Part shown: positions 5,446 through 24,260 of the stretch, piece by piece
How the letters are laid out: each line of letters begins with the position of its first letter
Position numbering within the stretch: position 1 is the first letter of the stretch
Source of the DNA: Myxococcota bacterium
GTDB taxonomy: Bacteria; Myxococcota_A; UBA9160; UBA4427
Assembly (NCBI GenBank): GCA_045106235.1
Contig: JBGCEJ010000010.1
Coordinates: 72,991 to 136,990 of the forward strand
Length of the DNA stretch: 64,000 bases
Direction: 5' to 3'
Translations under genes and position numbers: made by a program
The notes under the pieces: generated by a model
Seen by the model: only the letters and a program-made list of their open reading frames with translations
What the model was told of the DNA's origin: nothing
Databases searched by the model: none

Positions 5446-5492
5446 GCGCGGGGATTGATCTCCAGCGGACGGCGAGGCGAAGGGGGAATGGG

Positions 5493-6281
5493 GTGAAGGC
5501 CGGCTTGCGTACACATCTTCGAAGGGGTCGGCCTTTCGTGAGGTTGATCGCGCTCGGGGCGGTTTTTTGTTTTTCGCTGTTGGCTTCGTTTGGAGCGGCC
5601 CTTTCGGCGAAGGCCGACGAGCCGAAGTCGGTCAAGGAACTCCTCGCCGCTTTTCGTGAGATGCCCGGTTTCGAGGCGCGCTTCGTCGAGGATAAGCATC
5701 TGGCGCTGCTCGCGATTCCTTTGCGCAGTGAGGGGCGGCTTTATTTCGCGCCTCCGGCGCTGCTTCTGCGGGATGTTCTTTCGCCGTCGCCGCAGCGGGT
5801 GCTCCTGCAGGGGAACCAGGTGCGTCTGTCCTCGGGGCCGGGAGCCAATGGTGCGAGCGATCCCAGTGGCGTTGTCCGCGAGCAGGTCATCGACCTTTCG
5901 GCGCGACCTGAAATCAGGCCGTTGGTTGAATCTGTGCTTTGGTTGTTAAGCGGCGATGAGGCCGCTCTGGAAGGTGCCTTCGAAATCGAATTCGTGCCGT
6001 CTAAGTTGGAAGCGGATACGTTGGAAGCGGAATCCGGGGGAGACGAGTGGATACTGCGTTTGATTCCCCGAGACGACGCTCTCGCTCAACTGCTCGCACG
6101 CCTTGTTGTTCGCGGTCGTGGAATGGAAACGACTGAAATCGCCGTCGAGGAAAGTTCGGGCGATCGCTCTGTGATGCGTATCCTGGAGCCGAATCCCGCG
6201 CGTGTGTTCTCCGAGGCGGAGCGCGAGTCGATCTTTGGGACCCGGGAGAAGGCTGAACGCGCCGCGGTCCGGAATGAGTAA
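5493..6281 (+). CDS. LolA-like outer-membrane lipoprotein carrier family protein
   Basis: GTG at 5493 lies 6 nt after AGGGGG. Signal peptide is LIALGAVFCFSLLASFGAALSAKA. It sits between the thioesterase and the MMPL exporter, as in aryl-polyene-type clusters. The longer ORF-track version (5109) overlaps the thioesterase and was not used. Confidence 0.6.
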   Translation: MKAGLRTHLRRGRPFVRLIALGAVFCFSLLASFGAALSAKADEPKSVKELLAAFREMPGFEARFVEDKHLALLAIPLRSEGRLYFAPPALLLRDVLSPSPQRVLLQGNQVRLSSGPGANGASDPSGVVREQVIDLSARPEIRPLVESVLWLLSGDEAALEGAFEIEFVPSKLEADTLEAESGGDEWILRLIPRDDALAQLLARLVVRGRGMETTEIAVEESSGDRSVMRILEPNPARVFSEAERESIFGTREKAERAAVRNE

Positions 6282-8697: not shown

Positions 8698-8724
8698 GGC
8701 AGCTGAATGATTGAGGGAAGCTGG

Positions 8725-9447
8725 ATGCGATCTAAGGCGCTGATGCTGTTCCTGCTCGCTCTAAGCCTGGTCTTCGCGGGCTGTGAGAGTGCGAAGCGGG
8801 GCCCGGAGAGTCGGGAGGAATTCGCCGCTGAGTCGAGAACCGAGGTTCAGCAGGGCGCGGCCGATCTCCTTCCGGCGACCGCGCTCGCACGGCATTTTGT
8901 GTTGCGGCAGCGAGTGGCGATCCGTTGGCAGGACGAATCGGGGAAGCGCGACGAGGCTTCCTTTGATGCGGCGATTCAGCGGCAGGGCGATTCGCTCTTG
9001 CTGCTCGGGTTAGGACCGATGGGACAGGTGGGATTCCTATTGCGGCTCGAAAACGGTGTGGTCCATTTCGAAAATCGGACGGGGCTCGCCTTGCCCTTCG
9101 AGCCCGCGCGGATGTTGGCTGACGTGCAGCGCGTCTACTATCCATGGTTCGAGCCGGTCACAGCCTGTGATACCTGTGTGCGACGCGCGCAGCGATCGCG
9201 GATCACGGTTGAAGAAACGCGTGCGGAGGGCGAGGTCCGCACACGGCGATTCTTCCAGGCGGCGAAGGCGGGCAGCGTGGGGGACGGAGAGGGTCCAGAG
9301 AGCAGAGAAGACGGAGAGGACGATGTGATCGTGCGCTATTCCGGGGCGCCTTGGCTGGATGGTTTGGGGCAGGACGCTCTGCTGCAGAGCGTCGGATTTG
9401 GATACGAGGTCGAGCTCAAGACGCAAAGTGTGGATTGGATCGATTGA
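8725..9447 (+). CDS. lipoprotein of unknown function (DUF3261-like position in cluster)
   Basis: ATG at 8725 follows GAGGGAAG. Lipobox is LALSLVFAGC. It is the last gene of the co-directional cluster. Confidence 0.55.
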   Translation: MRSKALMLFLLALSLVFAGCESAKRGPESREEFAAESRTEVQQGAADLLPATALARHFVLRQRVAIRWQDESGKRDEASFDAAIQRQGDSLLLLGLGPMGQVGFLLRLENGVVHFENRTGLALPFEPARMLADVQRVYYPWFEPVTACDTCVRRAQRSRITVEETRAEGEVRTRRFFQAAKAGSVGDGEGPESREDGEDDVIVRYSGAPWLDGLGQDALLQSVGFGYEVELKTQSVDWID

Positions 9448-9469
9448 TCGTTGGTGATAGCGTTTCGGT

Positions 9470-10723
9470 ATGACTGATTCCGATCCGCGTCCGAAACCGC
9501 TTTCTGGCCTCAAGGTTGTTGACTGTACCCGCGTCCTCTCTGGACCGATCTGTAGTCGAATGCTGTCTGATATGGGCGCCGAGGTCGTTAAGATTGAGGC
9601 GCCTGAATCAGATATTCTGCGCGCGACGCCGCCGCTCGTGGGCGGATTCGGTTCGATGTTCGCGCAGTACAACGTGGGCAAGCGAAACGTCTCGATCGAT
9701 TTGAAAAGCGAGGGTGGGTCTGCTCTGCTCGGACGTCTGGCGAAGGAAGCCGACGTGGTCGTGGAGAATTTTCGGCCGGGTGTGCTTGATCGGTTGGGGC
9801 TCGCACCGGACAAACTGCGCCGTGAGAACACGCGCCTGATTCTCTGCTCGATCACGGGATGGGGGCAGGAGGGGCCTTGGTCGAGTCGCCCGGCGTACGC
9901 GCCGATGGTTCAGGCGGAGGCCGGGACCTTGGCGATGGGGGCTGCGCTTCGCGGGAGTCGTCCACGCGGCGAGACGATGCAGCACGCGGATCTCTATGCC
10001 GGGATGATGGCTTGCCAGGCGATCGTGGCCGCGCTCTATCATCGTGAACGCACGGGCGAGGGCCAGCATCTCGACATCGCGATGGGCGAGGCGCTGCTTT
10101 ACGTGAATGAACATGCGACTGCGGAACGAGCGGGCTATCCGGGATCGAGCGGATTCCCGACCTGGAATTTCGAGTCCTTTGAGTTAGGGGACGGGAACTC
10201 AGTTCACGTGATGGGGCTGCCGGAGCAGATTTTTCCTCTGCTGGCGATGATGCTGCCGATTCCGGGGGCGCTTGAGGATCCGCGTTTCGCGACGGCAGAG
10301 GCGCGCGTGGCGAATCGCGATGCGATGGTGGATCGACTGGATGAAGCGATGTCGCAGGTGGCGGATCAGCCGGCACTCGAGGCGCTGCTTGCGGGGACAC
10401 CGCTCATTGTCGTGCCGGTTCGATCGACCCGGGATCTGGTGGCGTCGGAGTGGGCGAAGCATCGCGGGGTGATGACCGAGATCGAGCCGGGCTTCGAGGT
10501 ACCGACTGCGGCGTGGCGTGCGAAAGACCTTGCGATCGGGGCGCCCAACACGCGGATCGCACGCCGAGGCGAAGACAACCGCGCCGTGCTCTCAGAATGG
10601 CTGGACCTCGATGCCCAGGCGTGCGCAGAGCTCGAAGCTTTGGGCGTTCTCGAGTACGCCGACGAAGAGCCCCCGACCCTCGACGAGGCGCCCCGTTCAG
10701 CATTCCGAGACGAGGGCAGTTAG
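9470..10723 (+). CDS. family III CoA-transferase (CaiB/BaiF type)
   Basis: LSGLKVVDCTRVLSGPICSRMLSDMGAEVVKIE is the N-terminal Rossmann signature. The catalytic Asp context is HADLYAGM...TGEGQHLDIAM. Confidence 0.9.
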   Translation: MTDSDPRPKPLSGLKVVDCTRVLSGPICSRMLSDMGAEVVKIEAPESDILRATPPLVGGFGSMFAQYNVGKRNVSIDLKSEGGSALLGRLAKEADVVVENFRPGVLDRLGLAPDKLRRENTRLILCSITGWGQEGPWSSRPAYAPMVQAEAGTLAMGAALRGSRPRGETMQHADLYAGMMACQAIVAALYHRERTGEGQHLDIAMGEALLYVNEHATAERAGYPGSSGFPTWNFESFELGDGNSVHVMGLPEQIFPLLAMMLPIPGALEDPRFATAEARVANRDAMVDRLDEAMSQVADQPALEALLAGTPLIVVPVRSTRDLVASEWAKHRGVMTEIEPGFEVPTAAWRAKDLAIGAPNTRIARRGEDNRAVLSEWLDLDAQACAELEALGVLEYADEEPPTLDEAPRSAFRDEGS

Positions 10724-10735
10724 GCGATCAACCTA

Positions 10736-10785
10736 AACAGCCTTGAGCCAAAAACAGCCTTGAGCCAAGAACAGCCTCGAGCCCA
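10736..10785. repeat. 17-bp tandem repeat x3 (AACAGCCTTGAGCCAA)
   Basis: Units at 10736-10751, 10753-10768 and 10770-10785 (the third has 2 mismatches). It lies between the CoA-transferase stop and the csp terminator. Confidence 0.9.
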
Positions 10786-10818
10786 AAAAAAAGGCCCCGT
10801 CACCGAAGTGACGGGGCC
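10785..10818 (-). terminator. Rho-independent terminator of cspA (read on minus strand)
   Basis: Perfect 11-bp stem GGCCCCGTCAC/GTGACGGGGCC (10793-10803 / 10808-10818), 4-nt loop, followed on the minus strand by a T8 run (A-run 10785-10792). Confidence 0.85.
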
Positions 10819-10842
10819 TTTCATCAAGTCAGTCTGAAGGGA

Positions 10843-11049
10843 TCAGACGACCTGGAGATTCTCAGCAGCAGGGCCCTTCTGGCCGTCTACTACGTCAAAT
10901 TCGACACGTGCACCCTCAGCCAAGGTCTTGAAACCTTCGCCCTGGATCGCGCTGTGGTGACAGAACACGTCCTTCTCACCATCATCACGCGTAATGAATC
11001 CGAAACCCTTTTCGTCGTTGAACCACTTCACTGAACCTGCAACTCGCAT
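10843..11049 (-). CDS. cspA: cold-shock protein (CspA family)
   Basis: 68 aa. RNP1/RNP2 motifs KGFGFI and VFCHHSAI, with [19 protein letters not shown] is GAAGG. Confidence 0.95.
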
Positions 11050-11501
11050 TTAACTACCTTCTTTTTCTTGTTGGAGAGCGCGCTTACGCGGCCTCCCTTG
11101 TTTGGACCGACCGTTTGCCTCCACTCGTGGGGCCCGATCGATTCCATTTTCTTGGAAGTCGTCCGCCTTGTTTAAGGCCGCCGAACTCGACTCCTCTGCG
11201 AAGCCGTTCCGGCGGGGAGAGTACACCCAAGCGAAGGCTCTGGACAGGGATGATCCGATAATTCACTGGAATGGGAAGATCGGGCTGAATCCGCAGTCAG
11301 GGGGAGCGCTTGATCGGATCGGCTTTGAGTGTAGGGATTTGGCCGTATTGAGATAAAGATTTCCTCCTGAAAGAGGCTGAGGTGTCTCTCTCGTCGATTT
11401 CACAGGGAACCAGGCCTGTAGTTCGCCTTAACTGGAAGCTTCGCCGCGCCGATTAGGAGAGGCTCGCGGGTGCATTTATTTCGGTTAAGAGAACCAATTG
11501 G

Positions 11502-13502
11502 GTGCGCTCCTTCCCTGCGCGGCAGCCTTCGCCGCATTCTGGAGAATCGCTCGTGTCCGCCGATCCCGCCGACCCCACCCGAATTCTTGATGACGAAATT
11601 GCCGGGCTAGACGAGCCGAGGATTGAAGATACCCCGACGAAGATTCTGCCAGAGGACTCCTCGCAGAGGATCGAAGACACGCCTACGAAGGTCATGCCCG
11701 ACGCCGCGGCGCGCATCGAGGAAACGCCCACCAAGATCCTGTCCGACGCGCCGCTCGTCGAAGACGATTCCGAGGCCGCGACGGTTCTTGTCCAGGCTGC
11801 GGCCCAGGTAGAGGTTCCGATCGAAGCGGATGAAGCTGCCACCGCGCTGATGGATAGGGAGGAGGAAGATCTCACGGTTGTTTCGGAGCCGCCTGCCGCG
11901 CCGACTCGGGTTTCTGCGGAACCGGCGCCTGCAGCGGCTGCCTCGGCGCGCCCCGACGGTCCGGTCAAGACGCGGGTCATTGATGAACTGGCGGAGCAGG
12001 GCCCGATGGACGCCCCAACCGACCTCGCGATTGGTTTGGCTGCTGCGGAAGCGGCCCCGCGGACGGCACCGGCAGCGGTGACGGATGCGATGACGCAGCG
12101 TGCTGCGGCGCCGGTGGCAAAGACCCGGGGCAATCTCACGGGGACGCGTTTGCTGAACCGCTACCGCATAGGCGATCAGCTGGGCGTGGGCGGTTTCGGG
12201 ACAGTCTATAAAGCAATCGACGAATTGAAGATGGCGGGCGGCGAGAGCGCAGAGATCGCGATCAAGGTGATGGATGCCGAAGTGGTTCAGGGACGGCTTG
12301 ATGTGCTCGTTCAGGAAGTCGCACGGAGCCACCATGTCTCCCACCCGAATATCCTCCGCGTCTACGATATTCATCGCGACGCGGACCTTGCCTTTATCAC
12401 GATGGAGATGCTCGACGGTGTAGAACTCGCGGACATGATCCAGGAGCGAAGTGCCGCTACAGGTGCTCAGGCAGCAGGGAAGAGCAAGGGGCAGGGCAAA
12501 GCGCCGGCGACGCTCCTTCCGCTCGGTGATGTCGACCGGGTTGCGCAGGATGTTTGTCGGGCGCTCGCGCATTGCCATCAGCACAAGATGGTTCACGCAG
12601 ATATTAAGCCCGCCAATATTTTCGTTTGCAAAGACGGAACTGTGAAAGTTCTTGACCTCGGCATCGCTCAGATTATGGGAAGTCGGGGCAGCGTGTCGGG
12701 GTACTCGGCACTCTATGCGAGCCCTCAGCAAATCGAGGGTGAGGCATCTGATCCCCGGGACGATGTGTTCTCGATCGCCTGCTCGCTCTATCTCTGTCTT
12801 GCCGGAGAACATCCCTTCGACGCGAAATCGTCGAAGGAGGCCAGGGCCGCCGGCGAGAAGATCGACCTTACGAAGCTTCCCCGCCGCTACCGCAAGGCCT
12901 TGGGGGCAGCGCTTGCTTGGAAGCGCGAGGACCGAACGGCTTCCGCCGCCTTGCTCTGGAAGCAAGTGAGTCCGGCGGTTCGCCGCCGGAATGCGGTTTT
13001 TGCGGGCCTTGCTGCGACGGCGGTGGCCGGGATCGCCGCAGCCAGCATGATCGGACAATCGATCGGCGAGGAGAGCATCGCCGTGAGTGGCGCGAACCAG
13101 GCAAAGGCAGAGGACGCCTATCGCCGGGCGATGAATGATCAGTCCTCCGGCGCGAACTCGGGGCGCGAGGGGCTGCTTGAGGCGATGCAGGCGAATCCCT
13201 ATCACGATGAGGCGGCGGCGGCCTACGTGAATTTGATTGAAAGCACGCCCTTCAATGACCCGGCCGAATACAGCTTGGTTTGGGCTGATTTTGGATTCGC
13301 ACTCGACGCAGCGCCGACTTCGGATGCACTTCAGGCGGCCGCCAAGGAACGGATTGACGGTCTCCTCTCCGCCGACCCCTCCGCGCTGCCCCGAAGCCGC
13401 GTGCTGAGCGAGTACCGAGCGCCTCTCTGTGTCCTTCCGCAGGCGGGCTACCGCGTGGAGGAAATCGAGGCGCTTCGTTTGGCGCTCGATATACGCTGTT
13501 AG
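11502..13502 (+). CDS. membrane-anchored Ser/Thr protein kinase with repeat-containing N-terminus
   Basis: Hanks kinase motifs GVGGFGTVYKA, AIKV, HADIKPANIF and DLGIA. One TM segment (AVFAGLAATAVAGIAAASMIG) precedes a ~150-aa C-terminal extracytoplasmic domain. The GTG start at 11502 is uncertain. Confidence 0.85.
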   Translation: MRSFPARQPSPHSGESLVSADPADPTRILDDEIAGLDEPRIEDTPTKILPEDSSQRIEDTPTKVMPDAAARIEETPTKILSDAPLVEDDSEAATVLVQAAAQVEVPIEADEAATALMDREEEDLTVVSEPPAAPTRVSAEPAPAAAASARPDGPVKTRVIDELAEQGPMDAPTDLAIGLAAAEAAPRTAPAAVTDAMTQRAAAPVAKTRGNLTGTRLLNRYRIGDQLGVGGFGTVYKAIDELKMAGGESAEIAIKVMDAEVVQGRLDVLVQEVARSHHVSHPNILRVYDIHRDADLAFITMEMLDGVELADMIQERSAATGAQAAGKSKGQGKAPATLLPLGDVDRVAQDVCRALAHCHQHKMVHADIKPANIFVCKDGTVKVLDLGIAQIMGSRGSVSGYSALYASPQQIEGEASDPRDDVFSIACSLYLCLAGEHPFDAKSSKEARAAGEKIDLTKLPRRYRKALGAALAWKREDRTASAALLWKQVSPAVRRRNAVFAGLAATAVAGIAAASMIGQSIGEESIAVSGANQAKAEDAYRRAMNDQSSGANSGREGLLEAMQANPYHDEAAAAYVNLIESTPFNDPAEYSLVWADFGFALDAAPTSDALQAAAKERIDGLLSADPSALPRSRVLSEYRAPLCVLPQAGYRVEEIEALRLALDIRC

Positions 13503-13592
13503 GCCTGTCTAGATAGGCTGTCGATTCGGGGCTCTGGGCGCGCTGGCCGCAGGGCACTCGCCTATTCGCGGCGCGCCGCTTAGCCGGACTCG

Positions 13593-15119
13593 CTAGAAGA
13601 GGTAGCGAACGCCGCCGTTCACGAGATCGTTCGTGATGTCATCGAGTGCGACGACTTTTCGGTATTCAAAGAAGGCCGAGAGGCGATCGCCGATGGCCCG
13701 GTTCAGCGTGCGCTGCCGGCCACCGCGGACAATCACCTGGGCGCCAACGACGAAGACGCCGTAGTCGGTATCGATTTCTTCGCCGCTGAGGACGAAGGCG
13801 TCGGCGCCCGCGCCGCGGCCGATTCCGGCGTATTGCGAAACCGTCTGGTTCGTCTCGTCTTCGAGTTCAAAGCGCCATTCGCCGCGGACGTAGGGAAAGA
13901 GGACGCCGAGAGGCGTGCTGACCGCGACGGAAGCGCGTAGACCCAGCGTGGCCTCGACGCTCTGGACTTCTTGTTCTGAAATTTTCAGGGCGAAGTACTC
14001 GTCCGGCGTGATGTTATCCTCGTCGTAGGCCGCGATCGTGATATCCGTGAACTCGATTCGGAACGAGGGTTCAAGGACGAAGGGCTTGCTCTTGCTTTCG
14101 CTGAGTCCCAGCTCGCGCAGGCCGAAGCGAAAGAGGTAGCCGGCATTCAGCGCACCCGTAATTGCGTTGCTATCGGTCTCGCCCTTGGTGCGCGTGTTGG
14201 TTCCGTCGACGTCGGGATTGAGCGAGGGATACGTGATGAAGCGGTTGATATCGAATTCCATGCGCTGGTAGCTCAGGAAGCCGGAGACGTAGAAGGCACG
14301 CCAAGAGTAGGTGGCAAAGGCGCCGACGCTGAATCCTTGGGAATCGATTCCGCCGTCGACGATGGATTTGCTGCCGTCAAAGTCGAGCTCGTTGGCGGAG
14401 TACGCCACGACGATGCCCGCTGCGAGGTCCGGCCTGAAGCGGTAGTCGAGACCGGCGGTGAGGTCGTAGCCTTCGAAGTCGAAGGCGTTCTCGAAATTGG
14501 TTGGATCATGGCTGCCCCAGCCATAGGAGGCGTTCATGAAGCCGCCGAGATTCGCGAGGGTGTCCGATTTGGGCTTTGCGCTCACCGGTGGAAGCAGAGA
14601 TATTGGGCGGCCGAAATCATCAAAGGTCTGTCGCGGGAGGTTCTCGATGCCAGCGATGGAGAAGCCCCGGGCGCCGAGGCGGAGGGCGGTGATTCGGTTG
14701 CGGACGCTGGCGTTCTGACCGTCGGCGAAATCTGTGGCAGCACTGGATTGTGCGGCCACTTCTTCTGCCGCTGTCCAGCGGAGGGCGTTGCCGAGTCCTT
14801 CATCGTCTACGCTCAAGCTGAACGCGGTGGGGCCTCCGTTGGCGAGAATTTCGTTGGCGGTCTCCACGAGCTCTCGAACTTCAGCGAAGACGCCAAATTG
14901 CTCGACGGTGCAGTTGCTGCCGATACCGCCGTTACAATCGGGCTCGAGGGCTTCGAAAACGCGCTGATTGGCACGGGCGGCGGATCGCTCGAGGTCGTCG
15001 TAGGCGCTGCGACGGTCCACGGTCGTGAGCTGAATCAAGTCCGCGAGCGCGGGGACCGGAACGGCCGCGATGCTGACGAGTATGATGGCCTGTAGGGTCC
15101 TGGACACGATGCTTCGCAT
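13593..15119 (-). CDS. autotransporter-type outer-membrane beta-barrel protein with short passenger
   Basis: Signal peptide is MRSIVSRTLQAIILVSIAAVPVPALA. The C-terminal ~280 aa show an alternating beta-strand pattern ending in GGVRYLF (terminal aromatic). Confidence 0.7.
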   Translation of the reverse strand: MRSIVSRTLQAIILVSIAAVPVPALADLIQLTTVDRRSAYDDLERSAARANQRVFEALEPDCNGGIGSNCTVEQFGVFAEVRELVETANEILANGGPTAFSLSVDDEGLGNALRWTAAEEVAAQSSAATDFADGQNASVRNRITALRLGARGFSIAGIENLPRQTFDDFGRPISLLPPVSAKPKSDTLANLGGFMNASYGWGSHDPTNFENAFDFEGYDLTAGLDYRFRPDLAAGIVVAYSANELDFDGSKSIVDGGIDSQGFSVGAFATYSWRAFYVSGFLSYQRMEFDINRFITYPSLNPDVDGTNTRTKGETDSNAITGALNAGYLFRFGLRELGLSESKSKPFVLEPSFRIEFTDITIAAYDEDNITPDEYFALKISEQEVQSVEATLGLRASVAVSTPLGVLFPYVRGEWRFELEDETNQTVSQYAGIGRGAGADAFVLSGEEIDTDYGVFVVGAQVIVRGGRQRTLNRAIGDRLSAFFEYRKVVALDDITNDLVNGGVRYLF

Positions 15120-15366
15120 CAGGCGGCTCCGCTATTCGTGACGACGGCCAAATCGCTCCGAGGGAGCGGGATTGCCAGTCGCGACGATCTTAAAAAATTC
15201 GTTTTGAAGGCCCCGCACGCGCCCAACCGAGGGCGACGCAGAAGAGGGCTTCTCCGCTATTCGCGGATTCATCGGCCAGGCAACCGCTAAAGAAAAGACT
15301 TTCCTCAAGACTGCCTCTGCATTCACCGCAACAGATCCAGGGGTCTCTTTGACCCGTGGAGTCTTC

Positions 15367-18300
15367 ATGTCGGGTGCGCGTCGATTTTTCGGTTTTCTGC
15401 TGCTTTCGTTTCTGCTCGGCTGCAGTCCAAGCGATGTCGGAAATCAATCCGGATCAGGTCCGACCGCGATCGCTGCGGCGGTGGGCGTCGGTGCGGAGAC
15501 GGGAGGCGCCTACCAGGTTCGCGCCGGCTCGGAAGTCGTTGTTTCGGGCAAGGACAGCGAAGGCGGGGGTGCGCCGATCCTGGAATACGAATGGAGCCAA
15601 GTCTCCGGAACATCGGTCGATCTCTTCGAGCGCACCAATATTAGTCGCTCCTTTACCGCGCCTTCCGTTGAGGACACGCTCGTATTCGAGTTGACTGTGA
15701 CGGACTCCAAGGGAAAGACCTTCGTCGATACGGTGGAAGTCGACGTGGTGCCCGTGCTGGATGACGGGAAATTCCTTCGCGATCCAAGTGTCGAGGAGGA
15801 GATCTTCTTTTTCATCTCGCCGAACTCTCCGCCGGCGACGGTGGCCGCGACGATTCCCTATTCGCTGACCGTACAGCCGATTGTTTATTGGACGGACCGC
15901 AGCGGCGGCGCTCGGTCCCAGGTTTTGGCTTCGGTCCTCGAAGTTTCGGATCAAATCGAGGCGGGTTTTACCGTCCCCGGAGATCCGGTTGACTCGACGC
16001 AGGATCGATTCGTTCTGGCCCTCCCGTTACTTGATGCCGACGAAGTCAATGTCTTCTTTCAAGATGCGCTGCGCGCGGGGCGCCTGGAACTCGAAGAAGT
16101 TCCGAACGCCCGAGTTGAACTCGAAGTTGCGCTCGTGGGCAGCGGCGATTTTGAGGTCTACGTCGGCCGGTCGGATTCTGGAAGCTACGCGCTGATCGAG
16201 GGCGCGGATATCGTGGCAAGCGGGGAAACCCCGACCGCCGCGGGCGGGATCCTGGAGGGATCGGACGGCGAGGTTCGACTTGAACTCGAAGCGCTCCGTC
16301 AAGAACTGGGCGTCGAGTCGCGGCGCTCCGCTTCGAACTACTACGACTGCATCGATCCCGCAGCTGAGGCGGCCACGCTTTCCGGCTGGCTGACGGCGAC
16401 GGGATTCGATGGCGCAACCGATGTCACGAACGCGAAATACGTGAACAACTACGATCTCGGTTTCGGGCGCGATATGTACATGCGGGACGACGGCGCCGGG
16501 AATGTCTATAGCTACGTTGTGAACTATCCCAGCCTAGAACAGCTCCTTAAAGGGCAGGGCGAGTTCGCGACGGTGGCGATGGAGTTTAGTCCGAAGCCCG
16601 AGGGCAGCTGCGATGCGCCGACGTTCAGCGCCACGGAGAAGATTGTTAAGTTCTATGCCTTTGTGCCGGATACCACGACCGGGGAGATGGTTCGTGCCGA
16701 GAGCATGAATTTCGATGGTCGCGGGGAGCGTTTCATGCCGGGCGTCTGCACCGCCTGCCATGACGGGAGCATTACGAATATTGCGGCCTTAGGTCAGTCG
16801 GATCTCTCTCTGATCTCGGCCGAGAATGCCGACCTGGCCGCGACGTTTATGCCCTGGGATCTTGATTCGCTGCTCTTTGCCGAAGCGGAAGACGAGGCGT
16901 TGGTCGACCCCGATCTGAATCCGGATGAATTCACGACGGCAGAGCTTGCTGCGGTCTCCTATGAGAGTCAGCAGGCAGCCTTGCGCTCCCTGAATGAGGC
17001 CTCGCTTCTCACCTACCAGGGAGATCTTCGCCGCTACGAAGAGCCGCTGCGAATGATTCACGGTTGGTATGGAAATGAAGCCGCGCTGCCGGCGCCGATC
17101 GTGGACGACCCGATGACGGCGGAGGATGAGACGGACGATCTCTTGGTTCCGAGTCCTCTGGAAAGCGCTTCTGAAGCGACACTCACGACGCTTCCCGCGG
17201 TGGCTTTTGATGGCAGCTATGTCCAGCCGGGATGGGCCGGCGAGGAGGCGCTCTACGAGGAGGTCTACTCGCGCTATTGCCGCATGTGCCATACGCAGCA
17301 GGATAATCTCGACAAGAATTTTGAGTCCTACGATGAATTCGTCGAGGCTGCGGCGCTCTCGGATTTCGTTTTCGTACGCGGTGTGATGCCGGCGGCGCGA
17401 CTGACCCTCGACCGGTTCTGGGTCGATTTTGCGGGCTCGGATCCCTCCGCCGCGGAAATGTTGCGGGACCATTTGATCGGGGAGGGGGTTGACCTTGCCG
17501 CCGATGCTGTGCCGGGGCAGCCTGTGGCGCAGGCGACGGTGACCCCAACCAGTGTCGATGCGGTGGACGGCGCGGGGGATCTCGTTTCGACGACGATCAA
17601 CCTGGATGGCTCCGGGAGTCTCTTTGCCGAGTCTTACGCTTGGAGCGTGACTGACGATTCGGGCTGCGGCGGCAGTCCCCTGATTGCCGGGTCTTCAAGC
17701 GCCCAGGCGTCTTTCGCCGTTGATACTTCGCCCTGCGAATACACGGTCACGCTTGAAGTCGACTCCGGGATTGCGACCTCGGAGAGCGAGACGTTGGTGA
17801 CGACGAACCGAACGCCCGTCACGAATAATTTCACGGCTTCGCTTTCGGGGTACACGCCCGGGGACGCGACGGTCGATGTGGATGTCTTTGCACAGCTGCC
17901 GTCGAATGCTCTGGGCGATGGGGATCTGGTACTCGGGCTGAACGATCCGGATCCGCCCTTCAACCTCGTGGTGAACGCGAATGCGTCTGAGGTTTCAGAC
18001 GGCGTCATCCGCTTGGTTCTCGACTCGCGTCTCGGCGGTACGATGGATTCAGTCCAGTATCAGCTAGTGGATGCGAACGGGACCCTGGCTGAATCGATTG
18101 GCGTGGTCAGCGTTGACGTGGACGCGATCGCGCCTGTGCTTTCGACGACGGGCGGCTCTTTGACGGAATCGTCGGTGACGATTGAATGGAGCGTGCCGTC
18201 GGGATTCGTCGCGGATGATTACTCGGTCCTTCGTGATGGACCGTCTCCGGACGGCAATTTTGGCGTCATCGCAACGACTGCGTCGCTGAACTACGCCGAT

Positions 18301-19170
18301 TCATCCCTCTCGAGTGGCGAAAGCTACGAATACCGCGTTGCGGCGAACCTCGACGGAGAGTCGGCCAATTCGAACGATCTCGCGGTTTCGACGGCGGTCG
18401 GGGTGCCCTCAGGCCTGATGGGGGGAGTGACGACTTCCAGCGTTTCTCTGTCCTGGACCGCAGGCCCCGGCAGCGCGCCGGACGGCTATACGGTGTACCG
18501 GGACAATGCGTTTCTCGGGACAACGACCGGCTCGGGGATGACCGCCTACGTTGACTCCAGCGTTTCGCAAAATACATCCTATTCCTACGAGGTCTCGCAG
18601 ACGCGCAACGGCGTCGAGTCGGGGCGTTCGACGGCAGCGGCGATGACGACGAATACCGCGCCGGCGACGGGCTTTTCGGCGAGCCCTGATTTCGGGACGA
18701 GTGATGCGATTGATCTGGCTTGGTCCGCGCCGGCGGGCGGGACGGCCCCTTCGAACTACCGCATCTACCGCGGAGGAGCCCTGATTCGAACCCAGAGTGG
18801 TCTCACCTATACCGATACGGGACTGGACTCCCAGACAAGCTATTCCTACGAAGTCGCTGCGGTGGGCGCGAACGGGGAGTCGACGCGTGTTTCGGATTCA
18901 GCGACGACGAATCCGTCGCTGCCAGATCTCGTGGCGGTTGCCGGAAGTAGTTCTGCCACGCAGCAATCCGGCACTTATCCCAACGGCTGTTTGAATTCGG
19001 GCTGTCATCTGGGCGCGTCCAATTCGGAAATGGCGGGTCGCTTCGCGACTCCCTGCGCTTCCGACGATCTCGATATGGGCGACTGCACGTCGTCGATGAG
19101 CGGAGTGAGTATCAACTCCGCCTTCAGAGACCTCATCCTCTTCTGGATCGCCGCCGGCGAACCGGACTGA
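15367..19170 (+). CDS. large secreted lipoprotein with PKD-like and Fn3 domains and two CXXCH haem-c-like motifs
   Basis: Lipobox is LLSFLLGC. PKD-like segments include ILEYEWSQVSG...FELTVTDSKG and YAWSVTDDSG...VTLEVDSG. Three Fn3-like repeats include SVTIEWSVP...YEYRVAA, SVSLSWTAG...YSYEVSQ and IDLAWSAP...YSYEVAA. CTACH lies at 16747-16761 and CRMCH at 17278-17292, each followed ~35-45 aa later by Met-Pro. Confidence 0.8.
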   Translation: MSGARRFFGFLLLSFLLGCSPSDVGNQSGSGPTAIAAAVGVGAETGGAYQVRAGSEVVVSGKDSEGGGAPILEYEWSQVSGTSVDLFERTNISRSFTAPSVEDTLVFELTVTDSKGKTFVDTVEVDVVPVLDDGKFLRDPSVEEEIFFFISPNSPPATVAATIPYSLTVQPIVYWTDRSGGARSQVLASVLEVSDQIEAGFTVPGDPVDSTQDRFVLALPLLDADEVNVFFQDALRAGRLELEEVPNARVELEVALVGSGDFEVYVGRSDSGSYALIEGADIVASGETPTAAGGILEGSDGEVRLELEALRQELGVESRRSASNYYDCIDPAAEAATLSGWLTATGFDGATDVTNAKYVNNYDLGFGRDMYMRDDGAGNVYSYVVNYPSLEQLLKGQGEFATVAMEFSPKPEGSCDAPTFSATEKIVKFYAFVPDTTTGEMVRAESMNFDGRGERFMPGVCTACHDGSITNIAALGQSDLSLISAENADLAATFMPWDLDSLLFAEAEDEALVDPDLNPDEFTTAELAAVSYESQQAALRSLNEASLLTYQGDLRRYEEPLRMIHGWYGNEAALPAPIVDDPMTAEDETDDLLVPSPLESASEATLTTLPAVAFDGSYVQPGWAGEEALYEEVYSRYCRMCHTQQDNLDKNFESYDEFVEAAALSDFVFVRGVMPAARLTLDRFWVDFAGSDPSAAEMLRDHLIGEGVDLAADAVPGQPVAQATVTPTSVDAVDGAGDLVSTTINLDGSGSLFAESYAWSVTDDSGCGGSPLIAGSSSAQASFAVDTSPCEYTVTLEVDSGIATSESETLVTTNRTPVTNNFTASLSGYTPGDATVDVDVFAQLPSNALGDGDLVLGLNDPDPPFNLVVNANASEVSDGVIRLVLDSRLGGTMDSVQYQLVDANGTLAESIGVVSVDVDAIAPVLSTTGGSLTESSVTIEWSVPSGFVADDYSVLRDGPSPDGNFGVIATTASLNYADSSLSSGESYEYRVAANLDGESANSNDLAVSTAVGVPSGLMGGVTTSSVSLSWTAGPGSAPDGYTVYRDNAFLGTTTGSGMTAYVDSSVSQNTSYSYEVSQTRNGVESGRSTAAAMTTNTAPATGFSASPDFGTSDAIDLAWSAPAGGTAPSNYRIYRGGALIRTQSGLTYTDTGLDSQTSYSYEVAAVGANGESTRVSDSATTNPSLPDLVAVAGSSSATQQSGTYPNGCLNSGCHLGASNSEMAGRFATPCASDDLDMGDCTSSMSGVSINSAFRDLILFWIAAGEPD

Positions 19171-19192
19171 TCAGAAAGAACGGATCATAAAA

Positions 19193-20842
19193 ATGAAAAT
19201 CGCGAACGAACAAGGTCGATCGATGGGGAAGCGCACCGGAGTGGGGGGTATGGTCAGTATGCTCTGCGCGTTCACTTTCGGATGTGCCTCGCCTGTGACG
19301 GATCACCCGGAATTTGACCTGAGTCGGGAACTCTCGGAGCTCGATGTGGTGGACTGCGTGGTCGAAGGCGCTGTTCGCCAGGTCGGCCGCAGCTTCGCCT
19401 ATCAAGAGCAGCCGCGTATGGCTCGGGTGACCGAGTTCGAGTGTGCTTCGATGGGGGGCACATTTGTCGCCTACGATGCCACGCGGCCGGACGCCGTCAT
19501 GGAGAAATGGTTGTCGTTCGCCGAGGGGGGTGATCCCGACGCGCAGCATCGTCTTGGCCTTCTCTATGAAGGCGCGATGGGGGCCGCTCCGGACTACAAG
19601 AAGGCGGCCTACTGGTACGGCCAGGCGGCGGATTCGGGGCATCGCGGAGCGATGTCTTCCCTGAGCGTGCTCTACGAAAAGGGGCTCGGGGTCGAGAAGG
19701 ACGTGCTGAAGGCGCTGAACCTTTACCGCGAATCTTCAGGGCTCTCGGGCGATAGCCTCATGCTTTCTTCGACTGCCTATGCCGAAATTGAAGAGGCGAA
19801 GGGCGAGCTCACGGACGAAATCGGGATGCTCCGGACTCAGCGCGAAGCGCTGACGGCGCAGGTTTCGGCTTTGACCCGCTCCTCCGCTTCCCGAGATGCG
19901 GCGAGTGCCAAGAAGGTCAAAGCGCTCCAGTCTCTTGTTTCGGATCTCAACCAGAAAGTCTCGAAGAAGGAAGAAGTGCTCGTCGCGATGCCTTCTTACA
20001 GATTGCTGCAGCGCGATGCGAATCCGTCGCGGGTGACGGAGTTTGATTTCCCGAAGTTGCCGACCAAGAAGCTTGGGAAGCGAACGGTCGGCCAGTTCTA
20101 CGCTCTGGTGATCGGGAATACGAAATACGAAAAGATGCCGGATCTCCAGACCCCGCGGAATGATGCGGAAGTGATCGCATCGCTTCTGACGAATCGGTTT
20201 GGGTTTTCGACGCAGCTTCTCCTCGATGCCAATGAGGAAGAAATTAAGCGCGCGATTCATAAACTGAACGGCGTGGCCGGAGAGAAAGATAATATTCTGC
20301 TCTACTTCGCCGGTCATGGACATCGCAAGAAGGGGACGGATCGGGCTCGCTTAAATGGGTATTGGCTGCCGACGAACGCGGACCAAGACCAGGACGTGAA
20401 CTGGGTCGATAATTGGTGGGTGACGAATCACCTGGACACCTCCATCGCCAAGCGCGCGCTCGTGATCGCGGATTCCTGCTACGGCGGCGTCTTCTCGACG
20501 GATCTTCCGATTGGTCCGGTGACGCAGCTTCCGCCGCTCGGTGAAGCCGATTTTGAAAAGAAGCTCGAACGAAAGAGCCGCTTCGTCTTGGCCTCGGGTG
20601 GCGAGCAGCCCGTTCTGGATGCGACGGGTCCGGGCTCGGAACATTCCGTTTTTGCGGGGGCCTTGATTGAGGTGCTGCAGCAGAGCGAAGGCCCCATGTC
20701 CGTCGTTGAGCTGTACGGGCGGGTGTTTGACCGGATGTACGATGCGCTCAAGTCGACGGGGATTAAGCAAGAGCCGGAGCTGCGCGTGATCCGCGCGGCC
20801 GGCCATCAGAGCGAGGGCGACTTTTTCTTCGTCGCGAACTAG
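19193..20842 (+). CDS. lipoprotein with Sel1/TPR repeats, a coiled coil and a caspase-like (peptidase C14) domain
   Basis: Lipobox is LCAFTFGC. Sel1 repeats include AQHRLGLLYEGAMG...YKKAAYWYGQAADSGH and AMSSLSVLYEKGLGV. The caspase His/Cys dyad contexts are LLYFAGHGH and LVIADSCYGG. The gene starts 22 nt after the preceding gene. Confidence 0.85.
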   Translation: MKIANEQGRSMGKRTGVGGMVSMLCAFTFGCASPVTDHPEFDLSRELSELDVVDCVVEGAVRQVGRSFAYQEQPRMARVTEFECASMGGTFVAYDATRPDAVMEKWLSFAEGGDPDAQHRLGLLYEGAMGAAPDYKKAAYWYGQAADSGHRGAMSSLSVLYEKGLGVEKDVLKALNLYRESSGLSGDSLMLSSTAYAEIEEAKGELTDEIGMLRTQREALTAQVSALTRSSASRDAASAKKVKALQSLVSDLNQKVSKKEEVLVAMPSYRLLQRDANPSRVTEFDFPKLPTKKLGKRTVGQFYALVIGNTKYEKMPDLQTPRNDAEVIASLLTNRFGFSTQLLLDANEEEIKRAIHKLNGVAGEKDNILLYFAGHGHRKKGTDRARLNGYWLPTNADQDQDVNWVDNWWVTNHLDTSIAKRALVIADSCYGGVFSTDLPIGPVTQLPPLGEADFEKKLERKSRFVLASGGEQPVLDATGPGSEHSVFAGALIEVLQQSEGPMSVVELYGRVFDRMYDALKSTGIKQEPELRVIRAAGHQSEGDFFFVAN

Positions 20843-20912
20843 CGCGCGTCAGACTTTGCGTCGCGCTACGCTTTCGCCGGACCGCGTGAGTGGGTCTGGA
20901 GGGAGTGAAGCG

Positions 20913-21359
20913 ATGGAAACGAACGATGTGGTGGCAGATTTTCGTGCCCAAAATCAGGACGGCAAAGAGGTGAGCCTCTCCGGGCTGCTAGAGGGTGGCC
21001 CCCTTGTGCTCTTCTTCTATCCGAAGGCGATGACCCCGGGTTGAACGCGCGAAAGCTGTCATTTCCGCGATTTGGCCGCTGAGTTCGAGGAACTCGGTGC
21101 TCAGCGCGTGGGGATCAGCGCCGATCCGGTGGATCGGCAAAAAGCGTTCGACGACAAAAATGGTTTGGGCTTTCCGCTGCTTTCGGACCCAGGTCGCGAG
21201 GTCGCGAAGCTTTTCGGGGTGAAGCGGTTCGGTCCACTCCCGAGCAAGCGAGCGAGTTTTGTGATCGATACGGACCGGAAGGTCCTGGGTGTGATCCGAA
21301 GCGAGATGGACATGGACGGACACGCGGATCAGGCGCTTTCGATTTTGAAGTCGCGCTAG
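20913..21359 (+). CDS. bcp: Bcp/PrxQ-type peroxiredoxin with in-frame TGA (candidate selenocysteine) at the peroxidatic Cys position
   Basis: ORFs 20856..21044 and 21072..21359 are in the same frame, separated only by TGA at 21042-21044. The joined sequence reads FFYPKAMTPG-U-TRESCHFRD, matching the Bcp motif PGCTxExC with the resolving Cys kept 5 residues downstream. ATG at 20913 follows GGAGGGA. Confidence 0.75.
21048..21069 (+). promoter_or_regulatory. candidate SECIS-like hairpin downstream of the peroxiredoxin UGA
   Basis: CGCGAAAG / loop CUGUCA / UUUCCGCG gives 7 pairs plus one A-C mismatch. The apical loop contains GU about 17 nt from the UGA. Confidence 0.4.
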
Positions 21360-21412
21360 GCCGCGCGGTCTGATCGCCGGAAAGAGTCTGGATGCGCCGG
21401 AATGCGCCGGGC

Positions 21413-21697
21413 CTAGTCTTCTGACTGGACGACCACGACCACGTCGCGAATCTCGGGGGCTTGGTCCGCGAGCATATCCTTCATCATGCCGGCCAGCGCA
21501 TTGGGCTCCATGATGCATTCCACGCATTGTTCATTCACGCCCTTGGCGTAGGCGACGCTGAGCTGATCGCCCTCGATTCGAAGCAGGGACACGCTGCCGC
21601 CGTCGGGTTTTACGATTTCGTCGAAGGCTTCGATCACGGCCTGGACGGCGGGGTTGACGGGGGGGAGGGCTGATGTCTCGGTCGCGGACGCACTCAT
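21413..21697 (-). CDS. NifU-like (Nfu-type) CxxC domain protein
   Basis: 94 aa. It has a KPDGGSVSLL...segment followed by QCVECIM (CxxC), as in NifU C-terminal domains. The start overlaps the upstream stop (ATGA at 21694-21697). Confidence 0.7.
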   Translation of the reverse strand: MSASATETSALPPVNPAVQAVIEAFDEIVKPDGGSVSLLRIEGDQLSVAYAKGVNEQCVECIMEPNALAGMMKDMLADQAPEIRDVVVVVQSED

Positions 21698-22260
21698 CGA
21701 TCGGCTCCGGTTTTTCCGCAGAGGCGTTCGATCACCGTTGGCGCGACCGCTTCAGCGAGGTTTTGGATCTCGGAATCGCTCCACATCGCAGTGGGGATCC
21801 AAGGGTAGTCGACGACCACGAAATCGTAGTCGGGATGTCCTGAGAGTCGCGCCATGGACTGGGCTGATCCGCGGACGGCTTCATGAATGATCGGGACAGC
21901 GGCAATGCCGGCCCACTCGAGTTCGATTGCGTCGCGCAAACTGCGCGCACTGCAGGAGCCTCAACCCCCGAAGCCGGTAATCGCGACCGAGACCTCCGAA
22001 GTGAGGCGCGCCCAGTCTGTGGGTTCCGGGGGGACGGAGACGCCGGCTTTAAGGACGTGGACCGAGGCGCTCGGGTTGGCCCGTCGCTCGATTTCGTCGC
22101 CGAGGGCGAGCATGAAATCTTCGCTGCGCCCGAGGCCGTTGGTCACGAGGCCGATCACTTGGCCGTCAAGGCTTGCGGGCCGGGAAGCCAGTTCGCGGTC
22201 GCCTTTGCGTTGGAGTGGTCCGCTTGTCGGATCGAGTCCGATGAGACTTTTTTGCGTCAT
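21694..22260 (-). CDS. UGSC-motif protein with in-frame TGA (candidate selenoprotein)
   Basis: Minus-strand ORFs 21961..22260 and 21694..21939 share one frame. The only interruption is TGA at 21963-21961. Read-through gives ...AITGFGG-U-GSC-SARSLRDAIELEW (a U-x-x-C redox motif). There is no SD before the TTG that opens the second ORF. GAAGGAG precedes ATG 22260. Confidence 0.7.
21931..21950 (-). promoter_or_regulatory. candidate SECIS hairpin downstream of the UGSC-gene UGA
   Basis: On the minus strand, 10 nt after the UGA: GU(G)CGCGCA / loop GUU / UGCGCGAC. This is an 8-bp GC-rich stem with one bulged G and G/U in the apical loop. Confidence 0.5.
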
Positions 22261-22306
22261 TCGAGCGCTCCTTCTGAGGTCGGCAGAGTCGGTGGGCTAT
22301 TCGGTG

Positions 22307-23287
22307 TTAGGCCGGGTCGATGTGTTGTGTGATGGCCCAGGCGAGATGAGGGAAGAAGATCCAGGTTGAGGCCATGCCGCGGCCGCCGGCGGCCACCAAT
22401 AGGAAACCTTCGGGGCCGGCGACGGAGACGGGGCGTTGGCCGGGCCCGGGATTGCGGCTCTTTTCGAAGAGGCGCTCGCGGATTTGAGTCTTGCTCCAGC
22501 CGGCTTCGAGGAAGAAGCGCTGATGCTCGGGACCGATCACCATCAGGACCGTGCCGTGTTCGAGGAAACGGTCCGCATAGACGCCCTTGCGCATTAACTC
22601 GTCGAGCCAAACATCACAGATGGCTTCCGGACTTCGGCTCTCGAAGTCGGCGACCTCGGCGACGCTCATTGCGGAATGGACGGTGACCGCGCTTTGGTCC
22701 CGACGGAGTCCTCGGTCGACATGGAGCGGTGTCCAGTCGCTTGCCGCCTCGTTTTCGCCGAAGCAGAAGGAGTAGCGGAACGGGCTCGCGAAGCTCGCGC
22801 GATCGAGAAAGCCTGGAATCGCTCGGCACACGTTTCGGATGACGAGGCGAAGCGCGCGGCCGATCGTGGCATTCGCGCGAAAGCCGGGTCCGAAGCAGCC
22901 TTCGCCGCATTCGATGTCGATCTCGTCTCGAACCGGTCCATTGACGACGACGATTTGCGAAGCGCCCGAGAGGGTGCCCGTGGTGCTATGGCAATTGCCT
23001 TTCTCGTGAAGGTGAGCGCGAACGGCGGCGACGACGATGGGGAAATAGCTGGGACGGCATCCGGCCATTACGGCGTTGATCGCCGCTTGTTCCGCGGTCA
23101 CCACGACTTCGCGGGTGGCGACTTCGCCGAGGATGGCATCCGGAGCGAGTCCGGCGACTGCGAGGAAGGCCTCGACTGCCTCGGGTGTGGGGGGCACGAT
23201 CGGAAGCCCGTCGGTCCAGCCGCGGGCGTCGTAGTCTTCGGCCAGGGCCGCATAGTCTTCGTAGGCGTGGCGTTCAGCGTTCAGCAT
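22307..23287 (-). CDS. conserved hypothetical protein (no family recognised)
   Basis: Long open frame with normal composition. ATG at 23287 was chosen because the 23383 start would overlap the upstream gene. Cys-rich core is HEKGNCHSTTG...IECGEGCFGPGFRAN. It lies 46 nt upstream of the UGSC gene. Confidence 0.6.
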   Translation of the reverse strand: MLNAERHAYEDYAALAEDYDARGWTDGLPIVPPTPEAVEAFLAVAGLAPDAILGEVATREVVVTAEQAAINAVMAGCRPSYFPIVVAAVRAHLHEKGNCHSTTGTLSGASQIVVVNGPVRDEIDIECGEGCFGPGFRANATIGRALRLVIRNVCRAIPGFLDRASFASPFRYSFCFGENEAASDWTPLHVDRGLRRDQSAVTVHSAMSVAEVADFESRSPEAICDVWLDELMRKGVYADRFLEHGTVLMVIGPEHQRFFLEAGWSKTQIRERLFEKSRNPGPGQRPVSVAGPEGFLLVAAGGRGMASTWIFFPHLAWAITQHIDPA

Positions 23288-23342
23288 CACCCCAAACGGT
23301 ACACCTCGGATTCGCCGCCCGCATGGGCCTTCCTGAGGGCCT

Positions 23343-24260
23343 CTACAGCTCGAGTTTGAAATGCTTAAGGGGATCGCCGGCATCTCCAGCCGGTGCCGGC
23401 AAGATCTGGCGCAGATGATCGCCTAATTTCCAGCCCCGCCTTATCTCGCGTTCTTTCCATTGGTCGGGGTATCCGAGGGAAACCTCCTCGAAGCGCACGT
23501 CGTCGATATACCGGGTGCAGGGGATATGGAGATGCCCGGAAATAACGACTCGCGCGCCGAATCGCGTATGCCAATCCTCGGTTCGTCGCGTGCCGCACCA
23601 GACCATGAAGCGCGGAATCAGGGGCAGGACCGCAAGTTCCTGGCGAAGCGGGAAGTGGGCGATCAGTATGGTGGGCAGTGGATTCTCAGCGAGCGCCGCG
23701 TCGAGCCGGGCTTCGCTTTCCTGGCAGCGGGCTGCGCACCACGCTCCAAAGTCCGGATAGGGCTCGGGCTTGATCAAGAGCTCGTCCGAGCACATCAGAT
23801 CCTTCTCACGCGCCCAGGCAACTGCGTCTTCAATCGGAACATCGTCCGGCCTAAAGCTGTAATCGTAAAAGAGGAAGAGCGGGGCGAGCAAATGTCGGCC
23901 GCCTTCTCCTTCCCAAACGGGGAAAGGGTCCTCGGGCGAGAGGACGCCGTATTCGCGGCAGATCTCGACGAGCTGGGTGTAGCGAGCGACGCCGCGCTTT
24001 CCTTCTTTGCGCGGGACGGTCCAAAGTTCGTGATTGCCCGGGACCCAGATCAGTTGCGCGAACTTTGCGTTCAGGACCTGGAAAGCAGTCCGAAGCTGGT
24101 CGGGTGTATCCGCGATATCGCCGCAGAGGATCAACCAGTCCTCAGGATGATCGGGGATCTCGGTGAGCGCGACGAGATTGGGCTTGAAGCCGACATGGAG
24201 GTCGCTGATGGCATGAAGCTTCACTAAGGGGCCTTTCGAAGTCGCTGCGGAGCGCATCAT
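23343..24260 (-). CDS. calcineurin-like metallophosphoesterase
   Basis: AISDLHVG, LCGDIADT, VPGNHELW and ISGHLHIP are the MPE metal-binding motifs. The internal ATG at 24260 gives a standard N-terminus. Confidence 0.8.
   Translation of the reverse strand: MMRSAATSKGPLVKLHAISDLHVGFKPNLVALTEIPDHPEDWLILCGDIADTPDQLRTAFQVLNAKFAQLIWVPGNHELWTVPRKEGKRGVARYTQLVEICREYGVLSPEDPFPVWEGEGGRHLLAPLFLFYDYSFRPDDVPIEDAVAWAREKDLMCSDELLIKPEPYPDFGAWCAARCQESEARLDAALAENPLPTILIAHFPLRQELAVLPLIPRFMVWCGTRRTEDWHTRFGARVVISGHLHIPCTRYIDDVRFEEVSLGYPDQWKEREIRRGWKLGDHLRQILPAPAGDAGDPLKHFKLEL

Follow-up and report, generated by a model that had tools for sequence, protein, structure and literature searches.

The stretch of DNA analysed here, 64,000 nucleotides (nt) of a contig from a Myxococcota bacterium, to which we refer at its full length as the window, carries at positions 11502-20842 one copy of a recurrent envelope module. 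The genes of this copy encode a receptor Hanks-type Ser/Thr kinase, an autotransporter-type outer-membrane barrel, a large lipoprotein that we label BIG, and a lipoprotein that combines Sel1 repeats, a stalk and a caspase domain (Table 1). A preliminary description of the region, made from the sequence alone, had grouped the barrel, BIG and caspase genes as a unit; the three open reading frames (ORFs) are all present at the positions it gave, the caspase gene does start 22 nt past the BIG stop codon, and the export signals found on the three products agree with the extracytoplasmic location it predicted. Its unit of three genes was too small: the receptor kinase gene, which lies directly upstream of the barrel gene and convergent with it, belongs to the set, and an α/β-hydrolase lipoprotein is a usual member. 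The suspicion that this was not a described system held up, as no description of the module was found in the literature searched, and neither BIG nor the hydrolase nor the module as a whole is assigned to a named system in Pfam, NCBIfam or PADLOC.

A protein search returned at least 668 homologues of the Sel1-caspase protein, of about 545 amino acids (aa). Scanning with one genome per species gave 80 caspase loci, and family hidden Markov models (HMMs) built from the first loci were searched against six-frame ORFs, with pruning of the ORFs aware of third-codon-position GC content (GC3) for GC-rich DNA. The 80 loci are mostly from Gammaproteobacteria (Steroidobacteraceae, Zhongshania, Cellvibrionaceae, Wenzhouxiangellaceae, Nitrococcus, Simiduia, Povalibacter); a genome of the window's own genus, G002, is deposited as a Myxococcota metagenome-assembled genome (MAG). 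Partner genes were counted within 10 kb in the 43 caspase-centred loci having at least 8 kb of sequence on either side (full-flank loci). Dozens of genomes have these same families around their caspase homologues: the barrel is present at 35 of the 43 full-flank loci, the α/β-hydrolase-like lipoprotein at 32, the kinase at 27, BIG at 10 and a protein with FHA domains at 9. All 43 loci contain at least one of kinase, hydrolase and barrel, and 37 contain at least two of the three. Exported and outer-membrane proteins are encoded, then, as a conserved set with a receptor kinase.

The genes flanking the module differ between all the loci compared, and order and strand within it are shuffled. In the window the order is kinase(+), barrel(-), BIG(+), caspase(+). 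Locus L033, whose caspase is 69% identical to that of the window, has this same order and retains, after BIG and ahead of the caspase gene, a small hydrolase gene. At L034 (64% identity) the arrangement is kinase(+), hydrolase(-), caspase(+), BIG(-), barrel(+); at L035 (61%) it is kinase, hydrolase(-), caspase, BIG, barrel, an order repeated at L022 (about 60%), from the same-genus genome G022; and at L036 (43%) it is kinase, hydrolase(-), caspase, barrel(-), BIG. The kinase gene is linked to the caspase gene in L022 and in L033-L038. Linkage that persists through repeated rearrangement is strong evidence that these genes work together, and the conserved linkage across related genomes, on which the preliminary description had staked its proposal, is clearly there.

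The most complete loci add partners to the set. In Dasania marina the genes for PP2C, FHA-FHA, kinase, caspase, barrel and BIG are followed on the same single strand by a 303-aa gene without a Pfam match, which is probably the hydrolase and was not scored as such; a Zhongshania locus has FHA, caspase, barrel, hydrolase and kinase genes. The usual parts of the module are the receptor Ser/Thr kinase, the exported and in most cases lipid-anchored Sel1-caspase, the autotransporter-type barrel and the α/β-hydrolase lipoprotein, and its variable parts are BIG, beside the barrel in many lineages, and FHA-domain and PP2C proteins in some genomes. The window's genome (5.8 Mb, 93% complete) has only two barrels of the family, as detected with the family HMM, and its two full-length Sel1-caspase genes each have one of them as a neighbour. 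The second pair belongs to a paralogous module on contig C29 (19853-24231; locus L023, 5851-10232), with caspase, barrel and hydrolase genes all on the minus strand and no kinase gene; its caspase falls in a separate clade, widespread in the same genus and family. Full-length orthologues of the window's caspase were found in just 3 of the 31 searched genomes of the genus, and the module is therefore accessory there. In the caspase tree the window's clade (seven sequences, support 100) has the full set, and loci with BIG are scattered across many clades.

Table 1. Positions in the window of the module genes and of the features of their products (coordinates of the 64,000-nt stretch).
Feature	Position	Strand	Evidence or motif
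Receptor Hanks-type Ser/Thr kinase, 666 aa	11502-13502	+	Pfam Pkinase E 1e-37
Kinase N-terminal repeats	11619-11741		RIE(D/E)TPTK
Kinase transmembrane helix	12996-13052		
Autotransporter-type outer-membrane barrel, 508 aa	13593-15119	-	PF03797 E 1.7e-40; TIGR01414 E 1.6e-12
Barrel helical linker	14664-14693		ITALRLGARG
Barrel passenger motif	14760-14783		LRWTAAEE
Barrel passenger Cys pair	14910-14945		
Divergent intergenic region barrel/BIG	15120-15366	.	presumed to hold both promoters
BIG lipoprotein, 1267 aa	15367-19170	+	lipobox, PKD, Fn3, CxxCH motifs
BIG lipobox	15412-15423		LLGC
BIG K319L-like PKD domain	~15514-15747		E 6e-12
BIG conserved core	~15751-17553		residues ~135-735
BIG core motif	16444-16479		NNYDLGFGRDMY
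BIG haem-type motif	16747-16761		CTACH
BIG haem-type motif	17278-17292		CRMCH
BIG core motif	17380-17403		G-V-M-P
BIG C-terminal motif	18988-19008		C-LNSG-CH (C-x4-CH)
Sel1/stalk/caspase lipoprotein, 549 aa	19193-20842	+	Sel1 E 3.4e-12; Peptidase_C14 E 1.8e-24
Caspase protein, lipobox-like sequence	19274-19285		TFGC
Caspase protein, Sel1 helices	~19487-19738		
Caspase protein, two long helices	~19766-19987		
C14 caspase domain	~20066-20833		
Catalytic His375	20306-20320		FAGHG
Catalytic Cys429	20471-20488		DSCYGG

A consensus scan of 11000-21500 for sigma-70 promoters and intrinsic terminators gave sites no more numerous than in shuffled sequence. The kinase has its catalytic domain at about residues 221-450, crosses the membrane with a single helix and ends in a tail of about 150 aa in the periplasm. 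All 50 module kinases are built in this way, with a single transmembrane helix and 105-150 aa of tail. Pfam matched the kinase only to kinase-type families (Pkinase, PK_Tyr_Ser-Thr, ABC1) and matched nothing in the tail. The N-terminus, on the cytoplasmic side, is disordered and carries RIE(D/E)TPTK repeats, which are candidate sites of autophosphorylation or FHA docking; neither the repeats nor the N-terminal region is conserved across the other module kinases. The hydrolase family is recognised by the motifs YIEGDG, GYSGGG and DHxCCW, its Abhydrolase matches being weak. A remnant of the gene was sought in the window and none was found, and the only copy in the genome is that of the paralogous module on C29; the window locus has lost the hydrolase, as has the sequenced part of the G002 locus.

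The barrel protein consists of a Sec-type N-terminus, a passenger of about 160 aa and a PF03797 domain over residues 194-464, preceded by a helical linker, the architecture of a classical (type Va) autotransporter. The passenger, which differs from those of type Va proteins in having no recognisable enzyme or adhesin domain, gave no Pfam match; its Cys pair, the LRWTAAEE motif and the linker are conserved in 22 aligned barrels from BIG-containing loci.

For BIG, the most likely start is the ATG at 15367, which has GGAG ahead of it and gives a product of 1267 aa. The signal peptide ends in a lipobox cysteine, as in bacterial lipoproteins, and is followed by the K319L-like PKD domain; the protein also has an Ig-like module and three Fn3 modules (Fn3 in three matched stretches, E 1.3e-11). 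The core of about 600 aa is kept from the window's lineage to the Gammaproteobacteria and carries, besides the haem-type motifs, NNYDLGFGRDMY, FMPWD and G-V-M-P. Invariant in 11 of 11 cores are NN-DLGF-RDM, two CxxCH, F-x-x-W-D, and M-P followed by R-L-x-x-D-R-x-W. The AlphaFold2 model of the core has a predicted local distance difference test score (pLDDT) of 81.9 and a predicted template modelling score (pTM) of 0.83, and no significant match to it was found in the PDB, either by sequence profile or by a Foldseek fold search. CxxCH motifs need periplasmic haem attachment, and haem binding by BIG is plausible, though Pfam gives it no confirmation. Multihaem cytochrome genes (Cytochrome_C7, c3 and C554 matches) adjoin the module at two unrelated loci, L036 (19511-21650) and Dasania L121 (1-2155), which hints at a redox theme for BIG. 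In a Steroidobacteraceae MAG (L063, 1955-9903) a single barrel gene is followed by two BIG paralogues in tandem, 1224 and 1248 aa long.

The preliminary description had taken BIG to be coupled to the caspase. BIG goes instead with the barrel: at 17 of 18 loci the two genes are no more than 400 nt apart. In gammaproteobacterial loci the barrel gene is upstream of BIG on the same strand, whereas loci of the window's clade have the pair divergent or BIG ahead of the barrel. Six loci were then picked by means of BIG homologues, so as to escape the bias of caspase-centred sampling. The barrel gene is directly upstream in all six, with overlapping stop and start codons in L122 and L123, and a caspase gene is present in just three (Cellvibrio, Dasania, Oleiphilus). 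Barrel and BIG occur together with no caspase, kinase or hydrolase gene nearby in Kineobactrum, Halioglobus and a 3-Mb contig, and BIG is absent at 33 of the 43 full-flank caspase loci. Because BIG and the caspase occur apart, barrel plus BIG is a separable cassette, the barrel being the element that it shares with the caspase set. Where BIG is lacking in Steroidobacter-type loci, the passenger of the barrel protein itself consists of two K319L-like PKD domains, as found at the N-terminus of BIG; an example is L056 (7432-9870), and other Steroidobacteraceae loci likewise encode such an autotransporter of about 810 aa.

The caspase protein also begins with a signal peptide ending in a lipobox-like sequence with its cysteine (TFGC). 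With a simple pattern, lipobox-like N-termini were found in 18 of 22 BIG, 43 of 55 hydrolase and 44 of 95 caspase ORFs; a Cys stands at the lipobox position in 58 of 98 aligned caspases, and at least 2 of the 13 caspases in alignment A1 have a signal-peptide-like N-terminus without it. The AlphaFold2 model comprises a small N-terminal beta domain, the Sel1 helices, two long helices (residues 192-230 and 236-265) and the caspase domain. The beta domain holds a Cys pair, C55 and C84, that is invariant in 98 of 98 sequences and therefore fits a disulphide bond in an exported protein, and the length of stalk plus linker is 107-170 aa in 96 of the 98.

The caspase domain belongs to the Peptidase C14 caspase-haemoglobinase fold and has its His-Cys dyad intact. 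Profile searches of the PDB matched the protein to metacaspase-4, MALT1 and Yca1, and Foldseek matched the model to MALT1 (1.2e-9), metacaspases and GSU0716 of Geobacter. Among 98 family members the catalytic His is kept in 97, and the catalytic Cys and Asp427, two residues before it, in all 98; the dyad is thus strongly conserved, and the domain looks active and of metacaspase type. The D-x-C motif formed with Asp427 points to a preference for basic P1 residues (Arg/Lys), as in metacaspases. The fold, dyad and D-x-C motif are those of prokaryotic metacaspases and orthocaspases (MEROPS C14), which the literature treats mainly as cytoplasmic proteases of cell death and stress, with no description of an architecture of lipoprotein and stalk. 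Sel1 is a common accessory domain in the survey of Asplund-Samuelsson et al. (2012; PMC3501461), where it is combined with the caspase domain in 6% of the bacterial metacaspases surveyed, and a neighbourhood of barrel, kinase and hydrolase is not described there.

The explanation that we prefer for these parts is a trans-envelope signalling device, similar in its working to the TagQRST-PpkA system and non-homologous to it, a reading in which our confidence is about evenly balanced. In such a device the barrel, plus BIG where present, would form the outer-membrane or surface end. The Sel1-caspase would be tethered to the outer membrane, with its stalk holding the protease domain toward the inner membrane. 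Events at the surface or in the outer membrane would then change how the small periplasmic tail of the kinase, or the barrel passenger, is contacted or cleaved. The kinase, once switched on, would send a phospho-threonine signal to FHA-type readers, and in the window its own TPTK repeats would be candidate docking sites. The barrel plus BIG cassette would probably serve as a redox or ligand input. A more specific version, namely that the module is a new class of device in which a stalked outer-membrane metacaspase on a barrel activates the kinase by regulated proteolysis, with a haem-bearing surface lipoprotein, BIG, of a fold not seen before as redox or ligand input, is put forward tentatively and seems to us possible, if somewhat doubtful.

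The closest parallel is the TagQRST-PpkA-PppA-Fha1 pathway of H1 type VI secretion. In Pseudomonas aeruginosa TagQ, an outer-membrane lipoprotein, and a periplasmic partner, TagR, activate the receptor Ser/Thr kinase PpkA after membrane damage (PMC13713981). In the module, likewise, an outer-membrane lipoprotein and a periplasmic partner would act upon a single-pass receptor Hanks kinase, with FHA and PP2C partners at some loci (Dasania, Zhongshania). The periplasmic parts are all non-homologous: in place of the Tag proteins the module has a protease of caspase type, an autotransporter barrel, a lipoprotein that resembles esterases and, in many cases, a haem lipoprotein. TagR (FGE-sulfatase-like), TagQ and the TagST ABC pair were not found among the called genes of 15 annotated loci and the window, and no periplasmic vWA domain of the PpkA type was found in the module kinases, whose tail has no Pfam match. 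TssC/VipB was not found in the window's genome (93% complete), so the output in the window is not type VI secretion, and type VI secretion as a general output of the module was rejected on this ground. A VipB gene lies beside the module at one of the 15 annotated loci, L124 of an Oleiphilus MAG (4722-14680), where caspase, barrel and BIG genes are followed without a gap by the VipB/TssC sheath gene and an FHA gene, with a Clp-type AAA+ (ClpV-like) gene at the end of the locus; given this case, type VI secretion may count among several outputs.

Rcs offers a second parallel, since there the lipoprotein RcsF, threaded through outer-membrane barrels, signals to the inner membrane on envelope stress. 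The concept in common is that of an outer-membrane lipoprotein and barrel pair that would report the state of the outer membrane to an inner-membrane signalling protein. They share no homology, and the output of the module is a Hanks kinase rather than a phosphorelay, with a protease and an esterase involved.

Several observations weigh against a signalling device of this kind. Most of the loci were picked through the caspase, and related genomes are non-independent samples. Loci of the Steroidobacteraceae type have hydrolase, barrel and caspase genes and no kinase gene within 10 kb, and the C29 paralogue in the window's own genome is likewise without one, so the kinase is non-obligatory or acts from elsewhere in the genome. 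Beside the window's copy of the module no FHA or PP2C gene was found. The AlphaFold2 model of the caspase protein is of only moderate confidence (pLDDT 70, pTM 0.47), and the two long helices could form a hairpin in place of an extended stalk. Finally, the caspase of L036 (10001-11650), the sole dyad variant among the 98 sequences, has Arg for the catalytic His (YFAGRGS) and keeps the Cys; catalysis is therefore not required everywhere, and this protein could be a pseudo-protease within a module that is complete in other respects.

A different explanation, essentially the one advanced in the preliminary description, is that the genes serve the display and maturation of a surface protein: the barrel would export or anchor BIG, the caspase and the esterase would process or release it, and the kinase would only regulate expression. 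The pairing of BIG with the barrel at nearly all loci that have it, with the barrel gene upstream on the same strand in gammaproteobacterial loci and overlapping it in L122 and L123, fits this explanation, as do the PKD domains that the Steroidobacter barrel carries as its own passenger and the short BIG-caspase gap in the window, which suggests co-transcription. The autotransporter protease NalP, which releases neisserial surface lipoproteins, and OzpA, which matures the Geobacter cytochrome OmcZ, are parallels. The module barrel is coupled to a lipoprotein genetically as NalP is functionally; it differs from NalP in that the cargo-like protein is a separate lipoprotein gene, and the protease a separate C14 lipoprotein and not a subtilisin passenger. 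Against it stand the full-flank caspase loci without BIG, which cannot then be the conserved substrate, and the barrel-BIG pairs that stand alone in Kineobactrum, Halioglobus and the 3-Mb contig, where BIG needs no caspase; in addition, a conserved Arg or Lys is not evident in the tether region of BIG. We consider display and maturation rather unlikely as the role of the module. Processing or anchoring of BIG by the caspase is possible only as a lineage-specific extra, not as its conserved logic.

The haem-type motifs lead to another explanation, in which BIG, bearing two or three haems of c type, joins the barrel in a small outer-membrane cytochrome complex for redox reactions or extracellular electron transfer, and the kinase and caspase sense the redox state of the surface. 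The two invariant CxxCH motifs and a G-x-M-P that could supply a Met ligand, present in each of the 11 diverse BIG cores compared, speak for it, together with weak Cytochrome_CBB3 matches in three homologues and the multihaem cytochrome genes at L036 and Dasania L121. The coupling of a barrel gene to a gene for a haem-motif lipoprotein, with multihaem cytochrome genes near the module at two loci, recalls the porin-cytochrome complexes (MtrCAB); the module barrel has 12 strands compared with 26, however, and BIG two or three haem motifs compared with ten. A 12-strand autotransporter barrel is, from general structural knowledge, too narrow to sheathe a cytochrome in the manner of MtrB. The Cytochrome_CBB3 score of BIG is under the curated cut-off (19.4 vs 27 bits), its core fold has no match in the PDB or among solved cytochromes, and BIG is missing from most modules. 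A redox role for the module is in our opinion improbable; both it and surface display may yet apply to the subset of modules that contain BIG.

Cell suicide or anti-phage defence, with a kinase-triggered caspase-like protease acting as cytoplasmic defence proteases do, is very improbable. In its favour are a weak match of the caspase domain to the 'caspase' model of PADLOC (E 2e-8), a resemblance of the kinase to defence kinases in its generic kinase domain, and a patchy distribution in the genus. The kinase matches reflect only the shared Hanks fold, however, and the protease is exported, as indicated by its lipobox or signal peptide and its invariant Cys pair. The proteins encoded with it are components of the outer membrane or lipoproteins, PADLOC matched none of barrel, BIG and hydrolase, and the surroundings in the window gave no sign of mobile elements or of a defence island. 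That unrelated envelope genes came to lie side by side by chance is refuted by the neighbourhood data, as the same families recur in shuffled order and with different flanks across Gammaproteobacteria and the window's lineage, and both family barrels of the genome pair with its two full-length Sel1-caspases.

Bacterial caspase homologues are abundant and, to our knowledge, almost none has an assigned function. An exported caspase with fixed partners (barrel, receptor kinase, esterase) turns the label of cell-death protease into a testable pathway. If the module is a signalling device as proposed above, an exported bacterial caspase homologue would for the first time have a defined physiological role, and TagQR-PpkA would have a counterpart gated by a protease; the module would also add a second, non-homologous coupling of outer-membrane events to Hanks-kinase signalling in diderm bacteria. 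Barrel plus BIG is an uncharacterised two-gene cassette whose core is confidently modelled and matches no solved structure. The module is widespread in environmental Gammaproteobacteria besides the window's lineage, and any function found for it would annotate many genes. New here is its presence in a lineage that has a same-genus relative deposited as Myxococcota; the analysis also adds the loss of the hydrolase, the free-standing barrel plus BIG cassette, the unmatched fold of the BIG core, the genome-wide pairing of both barrels with both caspases and the absence of TssC from the window's genome.

Downstream of the caspase gene, the genes at 20913-24260 of the window have counterparts only in G002 (L021), the genome of the same genus; more distant module loci lack them, and they hence lie outside the module. 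Elsewhere in the window's genome, on contig C1 (7397-11220), a gene for a Sel1-repeat protein adjoins another Ser/Thr kinase gene, possibly a simpler relative of the pairing seen in the module.

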